Of a stretch of 64,000 bases of DNA, positions 5,007 to 13,377 are shown in pieces. Numbering within the stretch: position 1 is the first letter of the stretch; every line of letters starts with the position of its first letter. The position numbers and the translations under genes were made by a program. The stretch is from Nitrospirota bacterium. GTDB lineage: Bacteria; Nitrospirota; Thermodesulfovibrionia; Thermodesulfovibrionales; JdFR-88. Under the pieces are notes generated by a model. The model saw only the letters and a list, made by a program, of their open reading frames with translations. It was not told where the DNA came from and searched no databases. The stretch is from assembly GCA_021789935.1 (NCBI GenBank), contig JAJYIR010000001.1, positions 75,807-139,806 on the forward strand, in the 5' to 3' direction.

Positions 5007-6125
5007 TTGCCTTCATCAGGCCGCCGGGTCATCATAAGAAAAGCGGAATATGATTACAGGACCTTGAGGCCTGTGTTCTTCGGGATCATGGACTCCATCG
5101 GCGGAGGCGGCATTGCCCGGAGCAGCCGGGTGGTGATAAAGCCCAACCTCCTTGCCCCCGCGCCTCCGGAAAAGGCCATTGTTACCCATCCGCTGGTGGT
5201 AAAGGCCGCCGTGGAATATGTGCTTGAGCGGGGTGCCTTCCCGATTATTTCAGACAGTCCCGCAATGGGGTCCTTTGAAAAAGTTCTGAAGGAAAGCGGG
5301 ATCAGGGACGCCCTTGAAGGGCTTCCCGTCGAATACAGGGAGTTCAGGGAATCAGCCCAGGTGGCCGCGGGGGTGCCTTTCCGTACTCTTTCCATCGCCC
5401 GGGACGCCCTTGATGCCGACATATTGATAAACCTGCCGAAGCTGAAAACCCATGCCCAGATGCTGCTTACCCTCGGCGTGAAAAACCTGTTTGGATGCAT
5501 CGTCGGGCTAAGCAAACCGGAATGGCATTTCAGGACCGGGGTGGACAGAGAGATGTTTGCCAGGCTTCTGGTGGAGGTATACAAGGCGGTAAAGCCTTCT
5601 TTCAGCGTTCTTGACGGCATTCTTGCAATGGAAGGGCAAGGGCCGGGAAGAAGCGGGGTGCCGCGCGAAATCGGTGTGTTGATGGGCAGCAGCGATGCGG
5701 TGGCCCTTGATGAGGCGGTGTGCGGGATGTTAGGCATCAAGCCTGAGGAATTACTGACCTGCAGGGCCGCCAGGGACATGGGCCTGGCCGGGGAGGCCAT
5801 CTCCATAGACGGGGAAGCGCCTTTCGTCAGGGACTTCAGACTCCCGTCTGTAGGCTCCCTGGTGTTTGGTCCAAAGTGGCTGCATGGCGGGCTCAGGCGG
5901 CATTTTGTGCAGAGGCCGGCCAGTGATGATGAAGCCTGCGCCCTGTGCGGAGAATGCTGGAAATATTGCCCTGCGCAGGCAATAAAGCGCAAAGGCAGAA
6001 AACTCCGGTTCGATTATGACAAGTGCATCAGATGCTACTGCTGCATAGAGGTGTGTCCGCACGGCGCGCTAAGGGCGGTTGATACCCTGCCTGGCAAACT
6101 GCTTCGGAAGATCACGAAAAGATAA
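5007..6125 (+). CDS. DUF362 domain protein with a C-terminal 2x[4Fe-4S] ferredoxin module
   Basis: DUF362-like core (VIIKPNLL..., LPKLKTHAQM, GILAMEGQGP). C-terminal CALCGECWKYCP and CIRCYCCIEVCP cluster motifs. TTG start with GAAAGGA upstream. Confidence 0.8.
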   Translation: MPSSGRRVIIRKAEYDYRTLRPVFFGIMDSIGGGGIARSSRVVIKPNLLAPAPPEKAIVTHPLVVKAAVEYVLERGAFPIISDSPAMGSFEKVLKESGIRDALEGLPVEYREFRESAQVAAGVPFRTLSIARDALDADILINLPKLKTHAQMLLTLGVKNLFGCIVGLSKPEWHFRTGVDREMFARLLVEVYKAVKPSFSVLDGILAMEGQGPGRSGVPREIGVLMGSSDAVALDEAVCGMLGIKPEELLTCRAARDMGLAGEAISIDGEAPFVRDFRLPSVGSLVFGPKWLHGGLRRHFVQRPASDDEACALCGECWKYCPAQAIKRKGRKLRFDYDKCIRCYCCIEVCPHGALRAVDTLPGKLLRKITKR

Positions 6126-6368
6126 AAGATAGGCGTCCGGGCTTATGGCTGCGCGGAATTCAAAAAACAAAAAAACAAAAAAAAGAAAAATGAAAAAGCT
6201 GCCCTCGGCGATAGATACAAAGCTAAAAAGACGTGTTTTTCTGCCCGCCTGCGCGGTGCTGAATTTTTTTCCGCCGCTTGTTTATAATAGATGCGGTTTT
6301 GAACTGCGGACCGTATCGGGTGCCTTTTGTTTATCAATACAGCCGTTACCAAAAGGAGGTAAGTTACT

Positions 6369-6701
6369 GTGCTTCTGGATGTAGTTATTGGGAAGGACTC
6401 CTTGTCCATGCAAATTGACGACCCTTTTCACATTGACCTGAATTCCTTTGTTGAACGGATCGAGGATTTTGCCTCCAGCAACGGCGTAAACGTCCAGGCG
6501 CTTGATGTGCGCAATATCATTCCCGGAATGATAAAAGGGATAGCAGGATGCGAGCACGGTTGCCCCGCAAACGCCAAGGGCTTTGTATCGGCGGGGTTCG
6601 ACGGGTTCGACCTGGAGTACATAGAAGGCGGGATACTTTCTGCCGCCGCGCAAGTGGGGGGTGGCAAGGTCCTCTACCTGAAGATGTTTCCGGATTTTTG
6701 A
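6369..6701 (+). CDS. Hypothetical 110-aa protein with a GCEHGCPANAKG motif
   Basis: GTG start 7 nt after a strong AAAGGAGG Shine-Dalgarno. Followed by the hairpin CCCCGGCCG...CGGCCTGGGG. I recognise no family. Confidence 0.5.
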   Translation: MLLDVVIGKDSLSMQIDDPFHIDLNSFVERIEDFASSNGVNVQALDVRNIIPGMIKGIAGCEHGCPANAKGFVSAGFDGFDLEYIEGGILSAAAQVGGGKVLYLKMFPDF

Positions 6702-7047
6702 TCTCTCCCCGGCCGCAGAAATCGGCCTGGGGCCGTGATAAGGGGTTCGTTTGTTTTTGTCCATGGCGGGGGTTATGCGCAGGCATACCCGCCCGGACCC
6801 GCACACAAGAAATCTTTCATTCACTCCCCGGTTTCCGCACTGCCGCGTTTCGCTGCAAGTTTCTTTTAGAAAAAGATATCCCTGCTGCCTGTGCTGCCTG
6901 AAGCATGATGCGAAGTCCCCCTTCTACTTCGCGCGATACATAGTCTGCTTCCGCGCTAAGATTCCGGTTGTACATCGCACATTAAGAATCTGTTATAATT
7001 CCGAAGGTTACGATTGAAAATCTTGAGGTATTGAAAAAGGGTAAAAA

Positions 7048-7182
7048 ATGGCGATACCTGATTTTCAGAGTATAATGCTACCGCTCCTCAAACTTCTTGC
7101 TGATGGGCAAGAGCAATTCGATTCCGTATGGGTCTCGCGAAATAATCCAAAGGGAAAAATGAAGCCTCTTTTAAATAGGTAA
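7048..7182 (+). pseudogene. Truncated Mrr-type restriction endonuclease (N-terminal winged-helix fragment only)
   Basis: Too short for the ORF track. MAIPDFQSIMLPLLKLLADGQE is the characteristic start of the Mrr_N domain. The similarity ends after about 22 aa and the frame stops at codon 45. Confidence 0.6.
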
Positions 7183-7293
7183 ATGTCTCTTATAATTATT
7201 ATCGGCATTCTTATAGTGATATGGAAATTGCATGCGCCGCTGCCGAACAAATATCGGCAGGCTAAAAGGCGTAGTAGGCGGCGTCGTGGATGA
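7183..7293 (+). CDS. Possible 36-aa mini-protein: one hydrophobic helix plus an Arg-rich tail
   Basis: My translation: MSLIIIIGILIVIWKLHAPLPNKYRQAKRRSRRRRG. The ATG overlaps the stop of the Mrr remnant (TAAATG). No clear SD. It could be non-coding. Confidence 0.2.
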   Translation: MSLIIIIGILIVIWKLHAPLPNKYRQAKRRSRRRRG

Positions 7294-7329
7294 AGTGTGA
7301 ATTGCGCTAAAAAGGACGAGGAGACAAAT

Positions 7330-7602
7330 ATGCCAGAGTGGTTTGAGGAGAAATTAATACCTGATGCAAAACTGGGGCGCTGTCCAAAATGTGGAGAGCA
7401 GACAGTAGTCTTTAATCCCAACAATCCGCACGGCGGTGATGATTTGCAATATATGGGTGGCAAGGGAGAAACATCTTTCGCGTATTTCCAAATCAAATGT
7501 AAGGCTTGCGATTGGCATGGCGAAGAAATATATAAAATGGTTTTTGTCGGTGTAAAAGATGGATGGACCGAAACAGATGGTTTTGTCGAGTTCGGTTTGT
7601 AA
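7330..7602 (+). CDS. Small zinc-ribbon protein (90 aa), first gene of the AT-rich cassette
   Basis: CPKC...(37 aa)...CKAC pairs. GAGGAG SD 6 nt upstream of the ATG at 7330; the track's GTG at 7297 is less likely. Confidence 0.55.
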   Translation: MPEWFEEKLIPDAKLGRCPKCGEQTVVFNPNNPHGGDDLQYMGGKGETSFAYFQIKCKACDWHGEEIYKMVFVGVKDGWTETDGFVEFGL

Positions 7603-7617
7603 ATTGAATTAAATCTA

Positions 7618-8217
7618 ATGAAATACAAAAATTTCCGAATTGGTTTTTGGCATCCGTTTGGGCCGCATAGTGACGAATCAGCCGAGCACATTTTAATGCG
7701 CAAAACGAAAGAAGCAGAGAGGAACGGTTGGACGCTATGGTCGTTTCAGCCTCGGCAAACATTATTAGAATGGTACCGTCAAATAAAAATCACAAATCCG
7801 AAAAAAGTATTTGTCTTTTGCTCCGCCGGTAATGGAAAGGATCCTGTTGAAAATGGCAGCCCTGCAATAAATTGCAGTAGCTATCGTTTCATTAATAATG
7901 AGAAATGGTTTTCAATTCCGAAACGGATTCGTGTCGGACATCCTTTTCGCTCCGGCAAGGGAAACGCATCTGCCTTTATAGTGCAGAAAGTTATACATCC
8001 TATCAATTCATTTGATCCGCCTGCTGTGGAATGGTTGTCAAAAGAAGGAAATTGGCAGCAGGGATATCAATCAAAAAAAGGCTGGGTTCCTCGATTACCA
8101 AGCCGACCCGAATATCTTGTAAGGCCGGGCGGGACGGCAAAAATGGGGCAAGTCCGCGCGATACTCGAACTAAAGTCACCATATTTGGCAGTCGTAAGCA
8201 CGGATTTATATGAGTAA
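7618..8217 (+). CDS. Hypothetical 199-aa protein with no recognisable family, second gene of the cassette
   Basis: A clean ORF in AT-rich DNA, where long ORFs are unlikely by chance. 15-nt gap to the upstream gene and 8-nt overlap with the downstream gene. Confidence 0.6.
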   Translation: MKYKNFRIGFWHPFGPHSDESAEHILMRKTKEAERNGWTLWSFQPRQTLLEWYRQIKITNPKKVFVFCSAGNGKDPVENGSPAINCSSYRFINNEKWFSIPKRIRVGHPFRSGKGNASAFIVQKVIHPINSFDPPAVEWLSKEGNWQQGYQSKKGWVPRLPSRPEYLVRPGGTAKMGQVRAILELKSPYLAVVSTDLYE

Positions 8218-9622
8218 CGAATTGAAAAAGGCATTTGAAGCTTATTTTGAGCTTGTAGTAAAAAGACTTCGAACCACTGAAGCTATTGATCTTCGGGGAA
8301 AAGTTATTGAACTAGAAAAAGATCGATGCTTTGAAAATCTTAAATGCGTGGCACAGAATGAGTTTCCTCAGTATAACGATTTTAATCCACGATTTATAAA
8401 TAGACATCACCTGCGCAACCCCAAATTTGCGAAGAATCATTATTTTGATGAGCTTGCTGATCACTATTTGCCTAATTTTTTCCGTAGGTCGCAATGCTAT
8501 CTTGATATCTGCAGAGGCGAAGAATTGGATAAGGTAAACCTTTACCTCAGCTTCTGTAGCGCCTTTACTAACAAGAAGACGACGGTCCTAAATCTTTTTG
8601 CATTTGAAAATGTGGGATTCGATGGATTTAATATGGATTTCAAAGATTTTTCAATTCGTCGATATGATTCAGCATTAGAAGAACGATTGGAAGTGGATAA
8701 CAGTAGGATATTTTATCCTGAATTAGTATTGCCCAATATGAAGGATTGCTGGCTCGTTTTAATAGAAGATATTGATAATTTACCTTCAGAAGAAGATCCT
8801 GACATTGAAAAATATGAACTTTTACCTGATTATTCAGCGAAAGTAAAATCGATTTTGCGCCTTATTTCTTTATATGACTGGAATTCTCCAAATGAAAGCA
8901 GCTATGAACGGACAACCAGAGAAGCAAATGCAAAAGTAAAAATCGATCAGTTTTTCAGAATTTATGAAAAAGTGGAATTAAAACGTGTATTGATATTAAG
9001 CGATGACCTGTTAGCGCCACCATATGATTATATATCCTCTTGGAAAGGCGCCCGGCGCCCTTATAACGATATAAATACTGATGATGACACCAAAATAAAG
9101 GATATGGAATTTTATGAAATACGGTCAAACGATTTTGCTGATGAATTAAAAGAAATTCAAAAAATTTTATTCCATATAGAAGAAAATTTTGCCGATCATG
9201 AATTGATTAATAATATCAAATTAGCCGCCGATTATTTATTGAAAGCGTTCTCCTGTAATGGACTTGAACAGTTACTATGGCACATAATTGTACTCGAAAG
9301 TCTTGTGGGTGAAAATAATAACAGAATATCTAAAACCATCAGGAGAAGAATTTCGGCAATTTTAGCTGGTCCAAATCTTGGAAAAAACAAGATGGCGGAT
9401 CTGATTTATAATTTACAGACTTTTAGAAATAATCTTGTGCATGGAAGTCCATTGGAAGAATCAATTTTAGCCGGTCACCTTCATCAGGCGCGGCATTTGG
9501 CGCGGGCATCTATAATATGGTTTTTAAATTATTTGAACGAAGCAGTCAAGCAAGGACATATAATGCCGAACCGGAAAGATATACTTGATTTCATAGATGA
9601 AGGTAAGCATGCTTTCGAATAA
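8210..9622 (+). CDS. 470-aa protein with a C-terminal HEPN domain (RNxxxH), Apea/ApeA-like architecture; predicted RNase effector
   Basis: The C-terminal ~130 aa appear helical and carry TFRNNLVHGS (R406-H411, nt 9425-9442), which matches Rx4H with N after R. The start overlaps the upstream stop (ATGAGTAA). Confidence 0.65.
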   Translation: MSNELKKAFEAYFELVVKRLRTTEAIDLRGKVIELEKDRCFENLKCVAQNEFPQYNDFNPRFINRHHLRNPKFAKNHYFDELADHYLPNFFRRSQCYLDICRGEELDKVNLYLSFCSAFTNKKTTVLNLFAFENVGFDGFNMDFKDFSIRRYDSALEERLEVDNSRIFYPELVLPNMKDCWLVLIEDIDNLPSEEDPDIEKYELLPDYSAKVKSILRLISLYDWNSPNESSYERTTREANAKVKIDQFFRIYEKVELKRVLILSDDLLAPPYDYISSWKGARRPYNDINTDDDTKIKDMEFYEIRSNDFADELKEIQKILFHIEENFADHELINNIKLAADYLLKAFSCNGLEQLLWHIIVLESLVGENNNRISKTIRRRISAILAGPNLGKNKMADLIYNLQTFRNNLVHGSPLEESILAGHLHQARHLARASIIWFLNYLNEAVKQGHIMPNRKDILDFIDEGKHAFE

Positions 9623-9656
9623 GCATCATTCCGTCTGTGAAATTGCGGAATGATGC
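9623..9656 (+). terminator. Perfect 11-bp stem hairpin immediately after the HEPN gene stop
   Basis: GCATCATTCCG (9623-9633) pairs with CGGAATGATGC (9646-9656) across a 12-nt loop. There is no U-tract, so it could also be an IS-end structure. Confidence 0.4.
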
Positions 9657-9920
9657 ATGAAGAACGAATGCCGCGACACTACAGGCTATGTCCTTTCAAT
9701 CCCGCCCGTTTTTATTTCTGATGGGACAAATGAGGTTTTTTTGGAACTGCGCGATAGGATTTCCGCCCGATTCGGACCATATTGAACAGATAAAAAGGCT
9801 CTGGACGCCACGGTAGCCGAATAATCAGGCGCTGAGGCTGGATTTTAGGCAATAGGGAGCCGCGGCAAGAAGTTTTATTTTTTTCGCCTGGCCCTGATCT
9901 GAAGCTTTTTCTGCCTGTGC

Positions 9921-11123
9921 TCATAGTGTGCATTCCAGCGGGGGCCCGTTGCAGGACGGATACAGTATCTCCACGGTGACCATTCTGCCTTTTTTGCAAA
10001 CGGGGCAGAGGGTGACATCGATGCCGGAGACCCTGAGTAACCATTCCTGCCATGTTTCGTGAGGCTTCCTGGCTTTTACTTCGACCTGTGAGCTTCCGAG
10101 AAGGTGACGAGCCAGAGAGATATAGTATTTGCGAAGGCGGTTTGCCAGAATCCCGTAATGCCGGATTTTGACAAAGCGGCTGGGAAGTATATGCAGGAGG
10201 AACCTTCTGATGAACTCATCGGCATCAAGGGTCATTACCTTGTTTTTGTCGCTGTCCGCGTAGTCGCGCCAACGGAAAGAGACCCTACCATCCTCCAGCT
10301 TCAGGATGCGGTCATTACTGATAGCCACCCTGTGAGTGTATCTGCCCAGATACTGAAGTGCGCCCTGTGCGCCGTTAAACGGGGGTTTGCAGTATACAAC
10401 CCATTTCTTGTCATACAGCTTTTTCTGCAGCCTTTTGAAAGCGTAGGGGTCCTCAAGATACCCGGTTTCTCCAGGGAATGAGAGTTTGCCGGAACCATAG
10501 GCTTCCTTCAGGTAATCCAGGAACTTGCCCTTGAACAGTTTGGACATGACCCGGACCGGGATGAAGAACTTTTTTGAGGACGATATCCATTTATCCTCTG
10601 CAGGGGACAGCCCGCCGCCGGTTACTATGCAATGGATATGCGGATGGTCCATGAGGTTCTGTCCCCATGTGTGGAGGACACAGGTGAAGCCGATATTGGC
10701 GCCAAGGTGCCTGGGGTCTTTGCCCAGTTTCATGAGGGTCTCCGAGACCGAGCGGAAAAGCAGACTATACATGACCTTCTGGTTGCTCAGGACAATGGGT
10801 TTAAGCTCGGCGGGGATGGTAAACACTACATGAAAGTACGGAATGGGCAGAAGGTCTTTTGCCCTGTCCCAGATCCATTTCTCTTTCTGCAGGGTCTGGC
10901 ATTTTGGGCAATGCCGGTTACGGCAGGAGTTGTACGACAACCTGACGTTGTCGCAATCTTCATTGTCGCACTTGTCCCTATGCCCGCCAAGCTCACTGGT
11001 CCTGCATGCCTCGATGGCATTCATGGCCCGATGCTTGTGCGGCGGAAGCTTATGGGACTCCCTGTACCCGGGGCCGTGCTGGCGGAATATGTCCGCCATC
11101 TCGACGCCGTATGCGGCCCTCAC
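9921..11123 (-). CDS. tnpA: IS91 family transposase (HUH, Y2)
   Basis: N-terminal zinc-binding region CRTSELGGHRDKCDNEDCDNVRLSYNSCRNRHCPKCQ. HUH motif HPHIHCIV. Tyrosine pair YLGRYTHRVAIS. Confidence 0.9.
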   Translation of the reverse strand: MRAAYGVEMADIFRQHGPGYRESHKLPPHKHRAMNAIEACRTSELGGHRDKCDNEDCDNVRLSYNSCRNRHCPKCQTLQKEKWIWDRAKDLLPIPYFHVVFTIPAELKPIVLSNQKVMYSLLFRSVSETLMKLGKDPRHLGANIGFTCVLHTWGQNLMDHPHIHCIVTGGGLSPAEDKWISSSKKFFIPVRVMSKLFKGKFLDYLKEAYGSGKLSFPGETGYLEDPYAFKRLQKKLYDKKWVVYCKPPFNGAQGALQYLGRYTHRVAISNDRILKLEDGRVSFRWRDYADSDKNKVMTLDADEFIRRFLLHILPSRFVKIRHYGILANRLRKYYISLARHLLGSSQVEVKARKPHETWQEWLLRVSGIDVTLCPVCKKGRMVTVEILYPSCNGPPLECTL

Positions 11124-11128
11124 TTGGG

Positions 11129-11962
11129 CTAAAGCCGTTTGTCGATAGGACTTGCCACCTGGGAGAGGGCCAGTTGACTTACGTGCAGGTAGACGGTTGT
11201 CGTTGTCGGGGACCTGTGGCCCAGAAGCAACTGGACATGGTGCAGGCTTATTCCTGCTTCAATCAGATGCGTGGCAAAGCTGTGCCTCATGGTATGGGGA
11301 GTGACCGGCTTTGTTATGCCGGCCTTTTCCACCGCGTCCAGGAAAACTTGCCGTATCCCGCTTACGGTCAGATGCGTGTTTTCCTTGTATCCCTCGAACA
11401 GCCATTCTTTGGGGCGGTAAAGCCGCCAGTACTCCCTCAAGCAAAGAAGCGCTCGTTGTGAGAGGATGGTATAGCGGTCCTTGCCTCCCTTGCCCTGCCG
11501 CACATGCACCATCATACGCTTGCTGTCGATGTCGGTTATCTTCAGGCGCGCCGCCTCGCTTATCCTCAGGCCCGAGGAATACATGACAATCAAAAGTGCT
11601 TTGTGCTTTATATTCTCCGTGACTGAAAAAAGAGCCTCGACCTCCGAAATGGAAAAAACGACTGGAAGCTTCTTCTTGCCCTTTGGATACCGGATATCAT
11701 CGACAATATCCTCTCGCTTCAGGGTCGTCTTATATAGGAACTTGATCCCGGCGACATAGTTCCTGTACGTCCCCACCTCTATTCCCCTGTCCTCAAGCAG
11801 ATGAACCAGATACTCTTTCACTTGCTCCTTGTTCAGGTCCGCAGGCGACTTGCCAAAATGCTTCGCAAGATTGCCGACCTCTCTCAGGTATTTCTTCTGG
11901 GTCGGCGTCGTGATACCGCTTAATTTCATGTCCTCCACCATCTGCTCCCTAAGCTCGCTCAT
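11129..11962 (-). CDS. Tyrosine recombinase / phage-type integrase associated with the IS91 transposase
   Basis: Catalytic residues in GLRISE, HTMRHSFATHL, LLGH and TVYLHV. AAAGGAG SD. 5-nt gap to tnpA. Confidence 0.9.
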   Translation of the reverse strand: MSELREQMVEDMKLSGITTPTQKKYLREVGNLAKHFGKSPADLNKEQVKEYLVHLLEDRGIEVGTYRNYVAGIKFLYKTTLKREDIVDDIRYPKGKKKLPVVFSISEVEALFSVTENIKHKALLIVMYSSGLRISEAARLKITDIDSKRMMVHVRQGKGGKDRYTILSQRALLCLREYWRLYRPKEWLFEGYKENTHLTVSGIRQVFLDAVEKAGITKPVTPHTMRHSFATHLIEAGISLHHVQLLLGHRSPTTTTVYLHVSQLALSQVASPIDKRL

Positions 11963-12397
11963 CGCAATCTCCTTTGAAACGAAATATTCGCCAGCTCATG
12001 CCAGCGGTACGGCAATAGGAGATTGTATGAAAAAACCTACGGACAGATATGAAGGACGTCTTTATATGGAACGAGCAGGAAAAAACGTGATCTTAATCAG
12101 AACAGGCGTGGGGCGCTAAAGCTACCGCGGAGCGGTTTCGTTCTTCTAGCGATAATCAACACAATCTAATCGATTCCAAAAACGAAAATTGTGGCCGTAA
12201 CACGCGCCGGAACCTTGCTCCCTAAAAGTTGCATGTACTGGACGTACATCTCATCAGGGGAAGCTGCCTACGGAAGGCGGGTTTTTGCCGGCAACGGCCA
12301 CATCGCCATAACCGGAACGCGTGCCAGCCCCACGGGGTTGATCCGGATCGAGATTCCCTGCACAAGCCGCTGGGAATACGTTCGTTATCCATTTAAA

Positions 12398-12431
12398 GGC
12401 AGAGGACGTTCTTCAGCCTATCTCCCCTGCC
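12398..12431 (-). terminator. Hairpin downstream of xerC (weak terminator candidate)
   Basis: On the minus strand GGCAGGGGA pairs with TCCTCTGCC (one mismatch) and is followed by TTTAAAT. It lies 11 nt after the xerC stop. Confidence 0.3.
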
Positions 12432-12441
12432 CTTCAATCGT

Positions 12442-13377
12442 TCACTCGTCCGCAAGGGGGTGGGCTTTATCGTATACATCCATCAGGTGCGCAATGTCCA
12501 GGTGCGTGTACCTTTGCGTAGTGGAGAGGCTGGAATGGCCAAGAAGCTCCTGTATCACCCTGAGGTCCGCCCCGGACTGCAACAGATGAGAAGCGAACGT
12601 ATGCCTTAAGGTGTGGGGGGTGGCCTTTCTGCCTGAAAACGCCTTTACGGCGCATCCAACCACGACGCGCCTTATGGACCGTTCGGTCAGCCTCCGCCCG
12701 GACCTGTTGATGAAAAGGGCCCCATTTGAGTTTTTTTCCGCTCCGCCGGCCGCCTGCCTTCTCCCTTTGCCCGTTAAAGTCCTTTTCAGAAGAAACCGTT
12801 CCAGTATATAGGCGCGGAGCGCCGAGACCGCCTTGCCACCGACGGGGACAAGCCTTTCTTTTTTACCCTTCCCCCTGACCTTGCACATCCCTTCCTTCAG
12901 GCTCAGATCGTCCATGTCCAGGGCCGAAAGCTCGCCCACGCGCAGGCCGCTTGAATACAGGAGCTCCAGCATGGCCCTGTCTCTAAGCGCCATGAAACCC
13001 GAATTCCCCGGAATTTCCATCAGGCCGAATGCCTCATCCACGGTGAGGAACCCGGGAAGCTTTTTTTCAGGCTTCGGCGAGCGCATGAGCCTTGCAGGGT
13101 TGGCATCCATGTGGCCCTCCCTGTTCAGGAATTTAAAAAAAGACCTGAGGGTGGAAAGCATTCTGCCCACGGAGCTTTTTTTGAGCCCCTTGTTCACGAG
13201 AAAGGCGGTAAAGGCCCTTACGTCCGAAAGTTCCACCTCTTCGGGCCGCACTTTCCATTCGTTAAAAAAGAGCGTCAGGTCCGTCCGGTACGCCCTAAGG
13301 GTATGAACGGAGGCGCCCTTTTCAATCTCCATGTATCTAAGGAATTTTTCTACGAGCTCGCCGCTTTTTTCTTCCAA
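12442..13377 (-). CDS. xerC: Tyrosine recombinase XerC/XerD family
   Basis: N-terminal SAM-like domain (FLRYMEIEKGASVHTLRAYRTDL). Catalytic region with GLRVGEL, HTLRHTFASHLL, LLGH and RYTH. Contains an extra Gly/Arg-rich insert (LTGKGRRQAAGGAEKNS). Confidence 0.85.
   Translation of the reverse strand: MEEKSGELVEKFLRYMEIEKGASVHTLRAYRTDLTLFFNEWKVRPEEVELSDVRAFTAFLVNKGLKKSSVGRMLSTLRSFFKFLNREGHMDANPARLMRSPKPEKKLPGFLTVDEAFGLMEIPGNSGFMALRDRAMLELLYSSGLRVGELSALDMDDLSLKEGMCKVRGKGKKERLVPVGGKAVSALRAYILERFLLKRTLTGKGRRQAAGGAEKNSNGALFINRSGRRLTERSIRRVVVGCAVKAFSGRKATPHTLRHTFASHLLQSGADLRVIQELLGHSSLSTTQRYTHLDIAHLMDVYDKAHPLADE

Follow-up and report, generated by a model that had tools for sequence, protein, structure and literature searches.

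A strain-specific islet in a Nitrospirota genome encoding a probable HEPN protein with a distantly ApeA-like catalytic region

Proteins of the HEPN superfamily share an all-alpha, four-helix core in which an R-x4-6-H motif closes helix 3, ahead of the loop that leads to helix 4, and a polar residue (N, D or H) directly follows the Arg (PMC3710099). ApeA, for whose HEPN domain HepT is the closest structural neighbour reported, cleaves tRNA in the anticodon loop, forms doughnut-shaped oligomers and is activated by a small molecule (bioRxiv 10.64898/2026.01.26.701840). DARNA carries its HEPN motif, R117-x4-H122, in the N-terminal part of the protein (bioRxiv 10.64898/2026.02.22.705581). Here, we compare with such systems three adjacent genes, g1, g2 and g3, that lie in a stretch of 64,000 nucleotides from a Nitrospirota bacterium (assembly GCA_021789935.1, contig JAJYIR010000001.1, positions 75,807 to 139,806; hereafter the window). 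An earlier note on this DNA had proposed that the three genes form one undescribed defence or abortive-infection system, in which a HEPN protein encoded by g3 has a zinc-ribbon protein and a second protein as obligate partners. The features of the cassette are:

7330-7602, plus strand: g1, 90 aa, ATG start; orphan zinc-ribbon protein (CPKC...CKAC)
7618-8217, plus strand: g2, 199 aa; from a conserved family of ~190 aa that lacks annotation
8210-9622, plus strand: g3, 470 aa; N-terminal region of unknown fold followed by a C-terminal HEPN-like domain
9182..9604, plus strand: predicted HEPN-like helical domain of g3, residues ~325-465

In the window, the three open reading frames (ORFs) are co-directional, with a 15-nt gap between g1 and g2 and an 8-nt overlap (ATGAGTAA) of the g2 stop with the g3 start, all as the earlier note had described. 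At the local base composition the chance of a stop-free frame is 5e-4 for 101 codons, 3e-7 for 199 and 6e-16 for 470, and both g2 and g3 align with their own homologues over their full length. The three are therefore not chance ORFs, and from the way in which they are joined they are probably co-transcribed here. The ATG of g1 has a GGAG 6 nt upstream; an alternative GTG start is present at 7297.

The reading that we favour, at a probability of roughly 0.6, is that these genes belong to a mosaic defence islet with a cargo of three independent pieces and an IS91 element, that its probable effector is the product of g3, a self-contained ApeA-like abortive-infection RNase, and that g1-g3 are not one dedicated system.

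The gene 3 family and its R-x4-H domain

A word-indexed search for relatives of g3 gave three, and a profile search against 1.84 billion cluster representatives gave a larger family. It comprises 1516 representatives at E<=1e-3 and 339 at E<=1e-30, nearly all of them full-length proteins of 450-540 aa (about 490 aa), and a view of g3 as rare or unique is not supported. The motif TFRNNLVHGS, to which the earlier note had drawn attention, is present in g3, with R406 encoded at 9425-9427 and H411 at 9440-9442. In an alignment of 78 family members, R380, H411 and W437 are conserved to 100% and R406 and G412 to 99%. The residue after the Arg is N407 in g3; the family consensus at this position is S (59%), which is polar but not N, D or H.

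A model of g3 was built with AlphaFold2 (AF2) from 4 sequences. It places C-terminal helices at residues 331-347, 351-366, 374-385, 392-411 and 421-447. The motif falls at the end of helix 392-411 and is followed by a loop and then by the long helix 421-447, a position that matches the HEPN description in PMC3710099, with a predicted local distance difference test score (pLDDT) of only 55-73 in the domain. Seven of the nine best Foldseek matches of the model are structures of the HepT HEPN toxin (7AE8/7AE9/7AE2/7AE6), and 5YEP is also at the top. None is significant (E 0.18), the comparison being weak because the model is poor. Sequence-profile searches of the PDB with the g3 family gave nothing relevant.

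The comparison with ApeA used the Pfam family HEPN_Apea (PF18739), Ec1ApeA (WP_000706972.1) and Ec2ApeA (WP_032180471.1), and full ApeA sequences were taken from E. coli genomes via the supplement DNA of bioRxiv 10.64898/2026.01.26.701840. When the 78-member g3 profile was aligned with hhalign, R406 and H411 fell onto the catalytic residues R502 and H507 of Ec2ApeA and onto R521 and H526 of Ec1ApeA. The E values were 0.085-0.12 with single ApeA sequences, 0.017 with a 5-sequence ApeA alignment at full length and 0.0027 with the domain alone; the last value was reached by 0/30 column shuffles, and the reversed alignment gave E 0.36. A second collinear block pairs GLEQLLWHIIVLESLVG of g3 with VENQLLNLWIAIESLIP of ApeA. 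As negative control, the g3 profile was aligned with HepT from a sister genome, and no alignment of the motifs was obtained. Against Ec1ApeA, Ec2ApeA and the 5-sequence alignment alike, hhalign found similarity in the HEPN region only, the N-terminal 320 residues and the Mid region being without any.

Judged from these alignments, g3 is probably a HEPN protein with a distantly ApeA-like catalytic region, and it falls outside the ApeA family as present models define it. Of the proposed C-terminal HEPN domain, the predicted helical domain, the family-wide R-x4-H motif and the alignment to the catalytic residues of ApeA are supported, the structural match to HepT being weak. The proposed resemblance to ApeA is borne out by the aligned catalytic R/H pair and by the stand-alone nature of the gene, and not by any match to an ApeA model or by homology in the N-terminal and Mid regions.

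Neither g1 nor g2 has a relative in any of 74 g3-family loci (3 plus 71 metagenomic loci, searched with phmmer and a hidden Markov model of the g2 family), and no neighbour family recurs among these loci. One relative of g3 lies on an integrase/primase element, together with genes for a 1078-aa methyltransferase (MmeI_Mtase, Eco57I, TaqI_C), an SNF2 helicase, a PLD protein and an HD protein; a second adjoins an Mrr_cat_2-helicase; a third is situated among housekeeping genes. The Pfam domains found near the relatives are heterogeneous, with a defence-type minority (AAA_21 and SLFN_AlbA_2 three times each, SMC_N three times, SNase twice).

Under the favoured reading, the N-terminal ~320 aa of g3 would be a sensor or oligomerisation module that keeps the RNase inactive until a cue of infection appears. 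By analogy to ApeA, the protein might dimerise via its HEPN domain and so form a composite R406/H411 RNase site. Upon phage infection g3 would cleave RNA, possibly tRNA anticodon loops as ApeA does, whereupon growth would stop and the infection be aborted. The products of g1 and g2 would be co-transcribed passengers with roles of their own.

Several points weigh against this reading. In the libraries, g3 is matched by none of the models (Pfam HEPN_Apea, PADLOC ApeA, NCBIfam): searches of Pfam, PADLOC, NCBIfam and PHROGs gave nothing significant, and in the first three of these nothing was found even at E<=1. Among the 78 relatives none matches the PADLOC ApeA model, Pfam and PADLOC give scattered chance-level matches, and HEPN_Apea is touched by only 1/78, at E 0.0034. 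(The CARF_HEPN model is touched by 2/78, at E 0.009, and one relative is labelled 'Apea-like HEPN' by the Joint Genome Institute.) The probabilities assigned by hhalign (11%) and Foldseek (<=0.47) are low. The pLDDT of the whole g3 model is 47.8, and with so poor a model it is chiefly a short motif that speaks for the HEPN fold. Housekeeping genes make up most of the surroundings of g3 relatives, and the enrichment in defence-island genes is modest and was judged with no background comparison. Finally, the close packing, with g2 and g3 overlapping by 8 nt and g1 and g2 only 15 nt apart, could mean that the genes are truly coupled in function in this genome.

An alternative is that g3 is not a defence nuclease at all, its R-x4-H domain acting in RNA processing or as a non-catalytic scaffold, or resembling HEPN through convergence at the level of the motif. 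Such a role would be in keeping with the lack of a significant profile or fold match, with the many family members that sit among housekeeping genes and with the finding that the family was not detected in plasmid, phage or viral-contig collections. It agrees poorly with the near-absolute conservation of R406, H411 and G412 in 78 diverse members, with the second collinear ApeA-like block and with the patchy, strain-variable presence of g3 at a hot spot that holds a HEPN toxin elsewhere (see below), and we consider it unlikely.

The islet and its site in sister genomes

The cassette is part of an islet whose borders were located by blastn against sister genomes, taken as those with a UppS at least 90% identical: the shared sequence stops at ~7024 and resumes at ~12227-12452. 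The features of the islet and its left border are:

6369-6701: 110-aa ORF without Pfam match, conserved at ~80% DNA identity throughout the sister genomes, adjoining the hot spot on its left
7025..12400, no strand: strain-specific islet of ~5.3 kb in a variable hot spot, between the conserved 110-aa ORF and an xerC-like recombinase gene
7048..7182, plus strand: 5' stub of an Mrr gene, which would code for a type IV restriction endonuclease; recognisable over roughly 24 codons, to ~7116; leftmost islet gene
9623-9656, plus strand: stem-loop with a perfect 11-12 bp stem and a 10-12 nt loop, directly 3' of the g3 stop codon
9921-11123, minus strand: IS91-family Y2 transposase (Pfam Zn_Tnp_IS91 and Y2_Tnp), inside the islet
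11129-11962, minus strand: accompanying tyrosine recombinase (Pfam Phage_integrase), inside the islet

The sister genomes share the gene order uppS-cdsA-DUF362-110-aa ORF ... xerC-like-DAGK/PAP2-ybeY. In three of them (L145-L147) the site is empty and the xerC-like gene directly follows the 110-aa ORF. Two others (L143/L144) carry genes for an MNT nucleotidyltransferase and a HepT-like HEPN toxin at the site, and one (L142) has a HepT-like gene alone. The proposal that the block was acquired horizontally is supported by these sister genomes, in which the site is without it. When the islet borders were inspected for att-like sequences, nothing but short repeats at chance level came up. The hot spot beside the xerC-like gene, with its differing HEPN-type cargo in sister strains, offers a small natural example of the turnover of defence cargo.

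Both flanking elements named in the earlier note were recovered. The left-hand Mrr remnant is a pseudogene stub of which ~24 N-terminal codons remain: in tblastn with the full Mrr of L126 as query, 26 aa are 58% identical to the N-terminus of that protein (E 9e-6 within a 3.9-kb segment), and the stub matches Pfam Mrr_N at E 0.016, and Mrr_cat was not found anywhere in 6100-10000. On the right, the IS91/integrase element is confirmed by its Pfam domains. The AT-richness of the cassette, at first estimated by eye, is borne out by the computed G+C content (GC), which is 0.429 for g1, 0.437 for g2 and 0.350 for g3, compared with 0.55-0.56 for the flanking core genes and 0.533 for the whole window. 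The IS91 unit, at 0.532, is unlike g1-g3. From the three levels of GC, 0.35 (g3), 0.43-0.44 (g1 and g2) and 0.53 (IS91), the islet appears to have been assembled from at least three sources, and the difference of g3 from g1 and g2 fits separate origins.

The hairpin at 9623-9656 (free energy -18.7 kcal/mol, z -2.2, from folding of the strand) is a possible terminator or mRNA-stabilising element; it was missed by the terminator scan because it has no T-run. The 3' end of the IS91 transposase gene is ~265 nt distant, and the hairpin could instead be part of the IS91 end. A scan upstream of g1 gave no consensus promoter, and the promoter and terminator scans were uninformative as a whole.

Genes 1 and 2 and their relation to gene 3

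The g2 protein belongs to a separate family that is widespread and stands alone. We found 110 homologues of ~190-210 aa at 35-56% identity, in Acidobacteriota, Binataceae, Thermoanaerobaculia, many Patescibacteria (bacteria of the candidate phyla radiation) and others, and in 0/110 does a Pfam domain cover the g2 family. There is no profile match for g2 in Pfam or the PDB, PADLOC, NCBIfam and PHROGs likewise gave nothing significant for it, and Pfam and PADLOC scans of 90 relatives gave scattered chance-level matches. The family has the motifs GFWHPFGPH...NGWTLWSF...CS...H...E. Its invariant residues include W11, H12, H17, E32, C68 and W146, and H108, E165 and W139 are nearly invariant, which suggests an enzyme or a ligand-binding site. 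The AF2 model is confident (pLDDT 95.3, predicted template modelling score 0.91) and has no significant Foldseek match in the PDB or BFVD. With its good conservation, its confident model and a fold and function that cannot be assigned, the family, which ranges from Patescibacteria to Acidobacteriota and to one uncultured phage genome, is a tractable target for function discovery.

Neither g1 nor g3 has a relative within 3 kb in any of the 39 g2-family genome loci (phmmer), and no neighbour family recurs there. The tightly linked neighbours of g2 relatives are ordinary genes (KsgA, a thiamine pyrophosphate enzyme, IGPS, YceG, MacB). The idea that g2 is a conserved module with variable downstream effectors was discarded, as these linked neighbours are ordinary housekeeping genes. 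In three unrelated loci, though with varying gene order, a g2 relative directly adjoins a co-directional gene for full-length Mrr (Mrr_N plus Mrr_cat):

L006:6001-7471: g2 relative with Mrr
L125:580-2144: g2 relative with Mrr, on an IMG/VR contig
L126:3908-5558: g2 relative with Mrr, on an IMG/VR contig

The adjacency in three loci and the Mrr stub in the window suggest that g2 arrived with Mrr, and it was probably acquired together with the now-truncated Mrr gene. In a fourth, archaeal g2-family locus (L044) an Mrr gene is 3.6 kb away, and the g2/Mrr adjacency is, as judged without a formal statistic, far commoner than expected of a random gene pair. The contigs of the two IMG/VR loci also encode Prim-Pol/PriCT_1/DUF3987 and an MNT nucleotidyltransferase and look more like integrative elements than virions. 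An uncultured phage with a genome of 485 kb also encodes a relative of g2 (LR745208.1:391933-392474; 31% identity, E 7e-13). In the relative P0103 (L023:1828-2610), from a metagenome-assembled genome of Mucilaginibacter, the g2-like part is fused in frame to an N-terminal UPF0175 (PF03683) antitoxin-type domain.

The g1 protein is a lineage-specific zinc-ribbon ORF. Its two CxxC pairs, CPKC at residues 17-20 and CKAC at residues 58-61, support its designation as a zinc ribbon. No homologue was found beyond g1 itself or outside this organism; the 13 contigs that bear g1 all have the same genomic context. Its library matches are Zn-ribbon or Lar-like and all sub-threshold. With the Lar-like restriction-alleviation zinc ribbon, PF14354 gave 17.9 bits (cut-off 28.6) and TIGR03655 gave 18.2 (cut-off 39.6), and the CxxC knuckles alone align. 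A place of g1 in the Lar-like family is not supported by these scores, which lie under the curated cut-offs. A small ORF with CxxC pairs is present upstream of g3 relatives at 3/71 loci, in one case 3 nt away. The ORF of this last locus (L075:1001-1228), co-directional with the g3 relative, encodes 75 aa with four CxxC pairs and is unrelated in sequence to g1. As a general analogue of g1 such ORFs were dismissed, given that they occur at only 3/71 g3 loci and at no credible g2 locus.

How far the three genes belong together was weighed on this basis. One possibility is a locally evolved pair, not ancestral, in which g2 would control the g3 RNase as its antitoxin or gatekeeper, much as in a toxin-antitoxin system. 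The translationally coupled ATGAGTAA junction, with g2 upstream of the putative toxin, the fusion of one g2 relative (P0103) to an antitoxin-type domain and the HEPN/MNT toxin-antitoxin pair at the same site in sister strains would all be compatible with such an arrangement. However, g2 relatives are mostly found alone between housekeeping genes (KsgA, IGPS, YceG, MacB), a g2-like gene is never present beside g3 relatives, and the strong conservation of His, Cys, Glu and Trp in g2 has the look of an enzyme or ligand binder with a function of its own, so that a pair of this kind seems improbable.

The dedicated three-component system, in which the zinc ribbon and the 199-aa protein would be obligate sensors or regulators of the HEPN effector, fares worse still. 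It would account for the operon-like packing, with its 15-nt gap and 8-nt overlap, for the presence of all three genes on one acquired islet and for the small, unrelated CxxC ORFs upstream of 3/71 g3 relatives, one of them at 3 nt. The co-occurrence of the three genes in other genomes, which the earlier note had put forward as a check and whose lack it had named as a refutation, was searched for and the result was negative (0/74 g3 loci, 0/39 g2 genome loci), and it counts against the proposal. Given this lack of a conserved neighbourhood, the orphan status of g1 and the GC difference of g3 (0.35) from g1 and g2 (0.43-0.44), a dedicated three-gene system is not supported; the families of g2 and g3 function elsewhere with no conserved partner. 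We rate it as very unlikely.

A similarly low standing is given to the proposal that g2 is a new fold-level family that binds or processes a modified nucleotide or nucleic acid and was recruited as infection sensor or gate for an ApeA-like HEPN RNase, which would make g2-g3, with or without g1, an undescribed abortive-infection module. It is founded on the confident model without a PDB or BFVD match, on six conserved Trp residues and on a cluster of His/His/Cys/His/Glu. Binding of a modified nucleotide by g2 would, if true, explain the repeated adjacency to Mrr. We hold this module to be highly improbable. Least credible of all is that the cassette is decaying cargo without current function, as the adjacent Mrr gene worn down to ~24 codons, the IS91 element in the islet and the missing consensus promoter upstream of g1 might suggest, for g2 and g3 are intact, match their homologues over the full length and have kept every conserved residue, and identical copies were recovered from several samples.

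Comparison with known systems

The favoured reading, of a mosaic islet with g3 as a stand-alone effector, can be set against four described groups of proteins. The modified-base readers of the YTH/EVE/ASCH (PUA-like) type concern g2. The N-terminal beta-alpha-beta-alpha-beta layout of its model and the conserved G-W-T/S strand resemble YTH, YTH domains recur among its top Foldseek matches, and relatives of g2 adjoin the modification-dependent nuclease Mrr in three loci. In contrast, Foldseek probabilities do not exceed 0.2, the template modelling score is ~0.2 and profile matches in Pfam and the PDB are lacking. A PUA/YTH-like modified-base reader is hence a lead only.

HepT/MNT (DUF86) systems contain a HEPN RNase toxin, which g3 would be as well, and the g3 model has its top Foldseek match, a weak one, in HepT. 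They also occupy the same chromosomal hot spot in sister genomes. HepT, however, is minimal at 120-190 aa and obligately paired with MNT, whereas g3 has 470 aa, lies beside no MNT gene and does not resemble the local HepT at the profile level. A classification of g3 as a HEPN/MNT-type toxin-antitoxin system is not supported: there is no MNT gene beside g3 or its relatives, and the MNT/HepT pair is found at this site only in sister genomes.

DARNA (PD-T7-3) is, as predicted for g3, a single-protein HEPN abortive-infection effector of ~450-500 aa, and acts as a tRNase. Its HEPN domain is N-terminal, the predicted one of g3 C-terminal, and neither g3 nor its relatives have a significant match to any model of PADLOC-DB v2.0.0.

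The nearest counterpart is ApeA, from which g3 differs in several respects. It is unmatched by the Pfam, PADLOC and NCBIfam models of ApeA, its N-terminal and middle regions have no detectable similarity, it is ~110-130 aa shorter, and the insert between the two HEPN blocks measures ~35 aa as compared with ~110 aa in ApeA. Ec2ApeA and Ec3ApeA lie in P2-like prophages, whereas the g3 family was not found in viral collections. In these prophages the two genes (L132:2501-4252; L141:2201-3954) occupy a hot spot flanked by genes for baseplate V and virion morphogenesis; both proteins are annotated by RefSeq as 'hypothetical protein' only, and Ec3ApeA is split into two ORFs in strain EC416.

The likenesses are nonetheless of several kinds. 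Each is a large single protein whose long N-terminal region precedes a C-terminal HEPN domain, a predicted one in g3, and each is encoded by a single gene without a conserved partner, as is the g3 family in 74 loci. The R-N-x3-H of g3 falls on the catalytic R/H of ApeA and is followed 11-13 residues later by a conserved His, and a block E-Q-L-L-x-W-I-x-x-E-S-L is shared upstream. In structure, HepT comes closest to both, weakly so for the g3 model. What the locus adds is a further single-protein HEPN candidate and no new category, the tripartite architecture being unsupported. If g3 works as we infer, ApeA-like HEPN effectors made of a single protein, in at least ~1500 sequence clusters, are invisible to Pfam, PADLOC and NCBIfam and for that reason probably missing from censuses of defence systems. 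The N-terminal region, which differs from that of ApeA, may sense a different infection signal, and in this way the g3 family bears on how HEPN effectors that stand alone come to be triggered.

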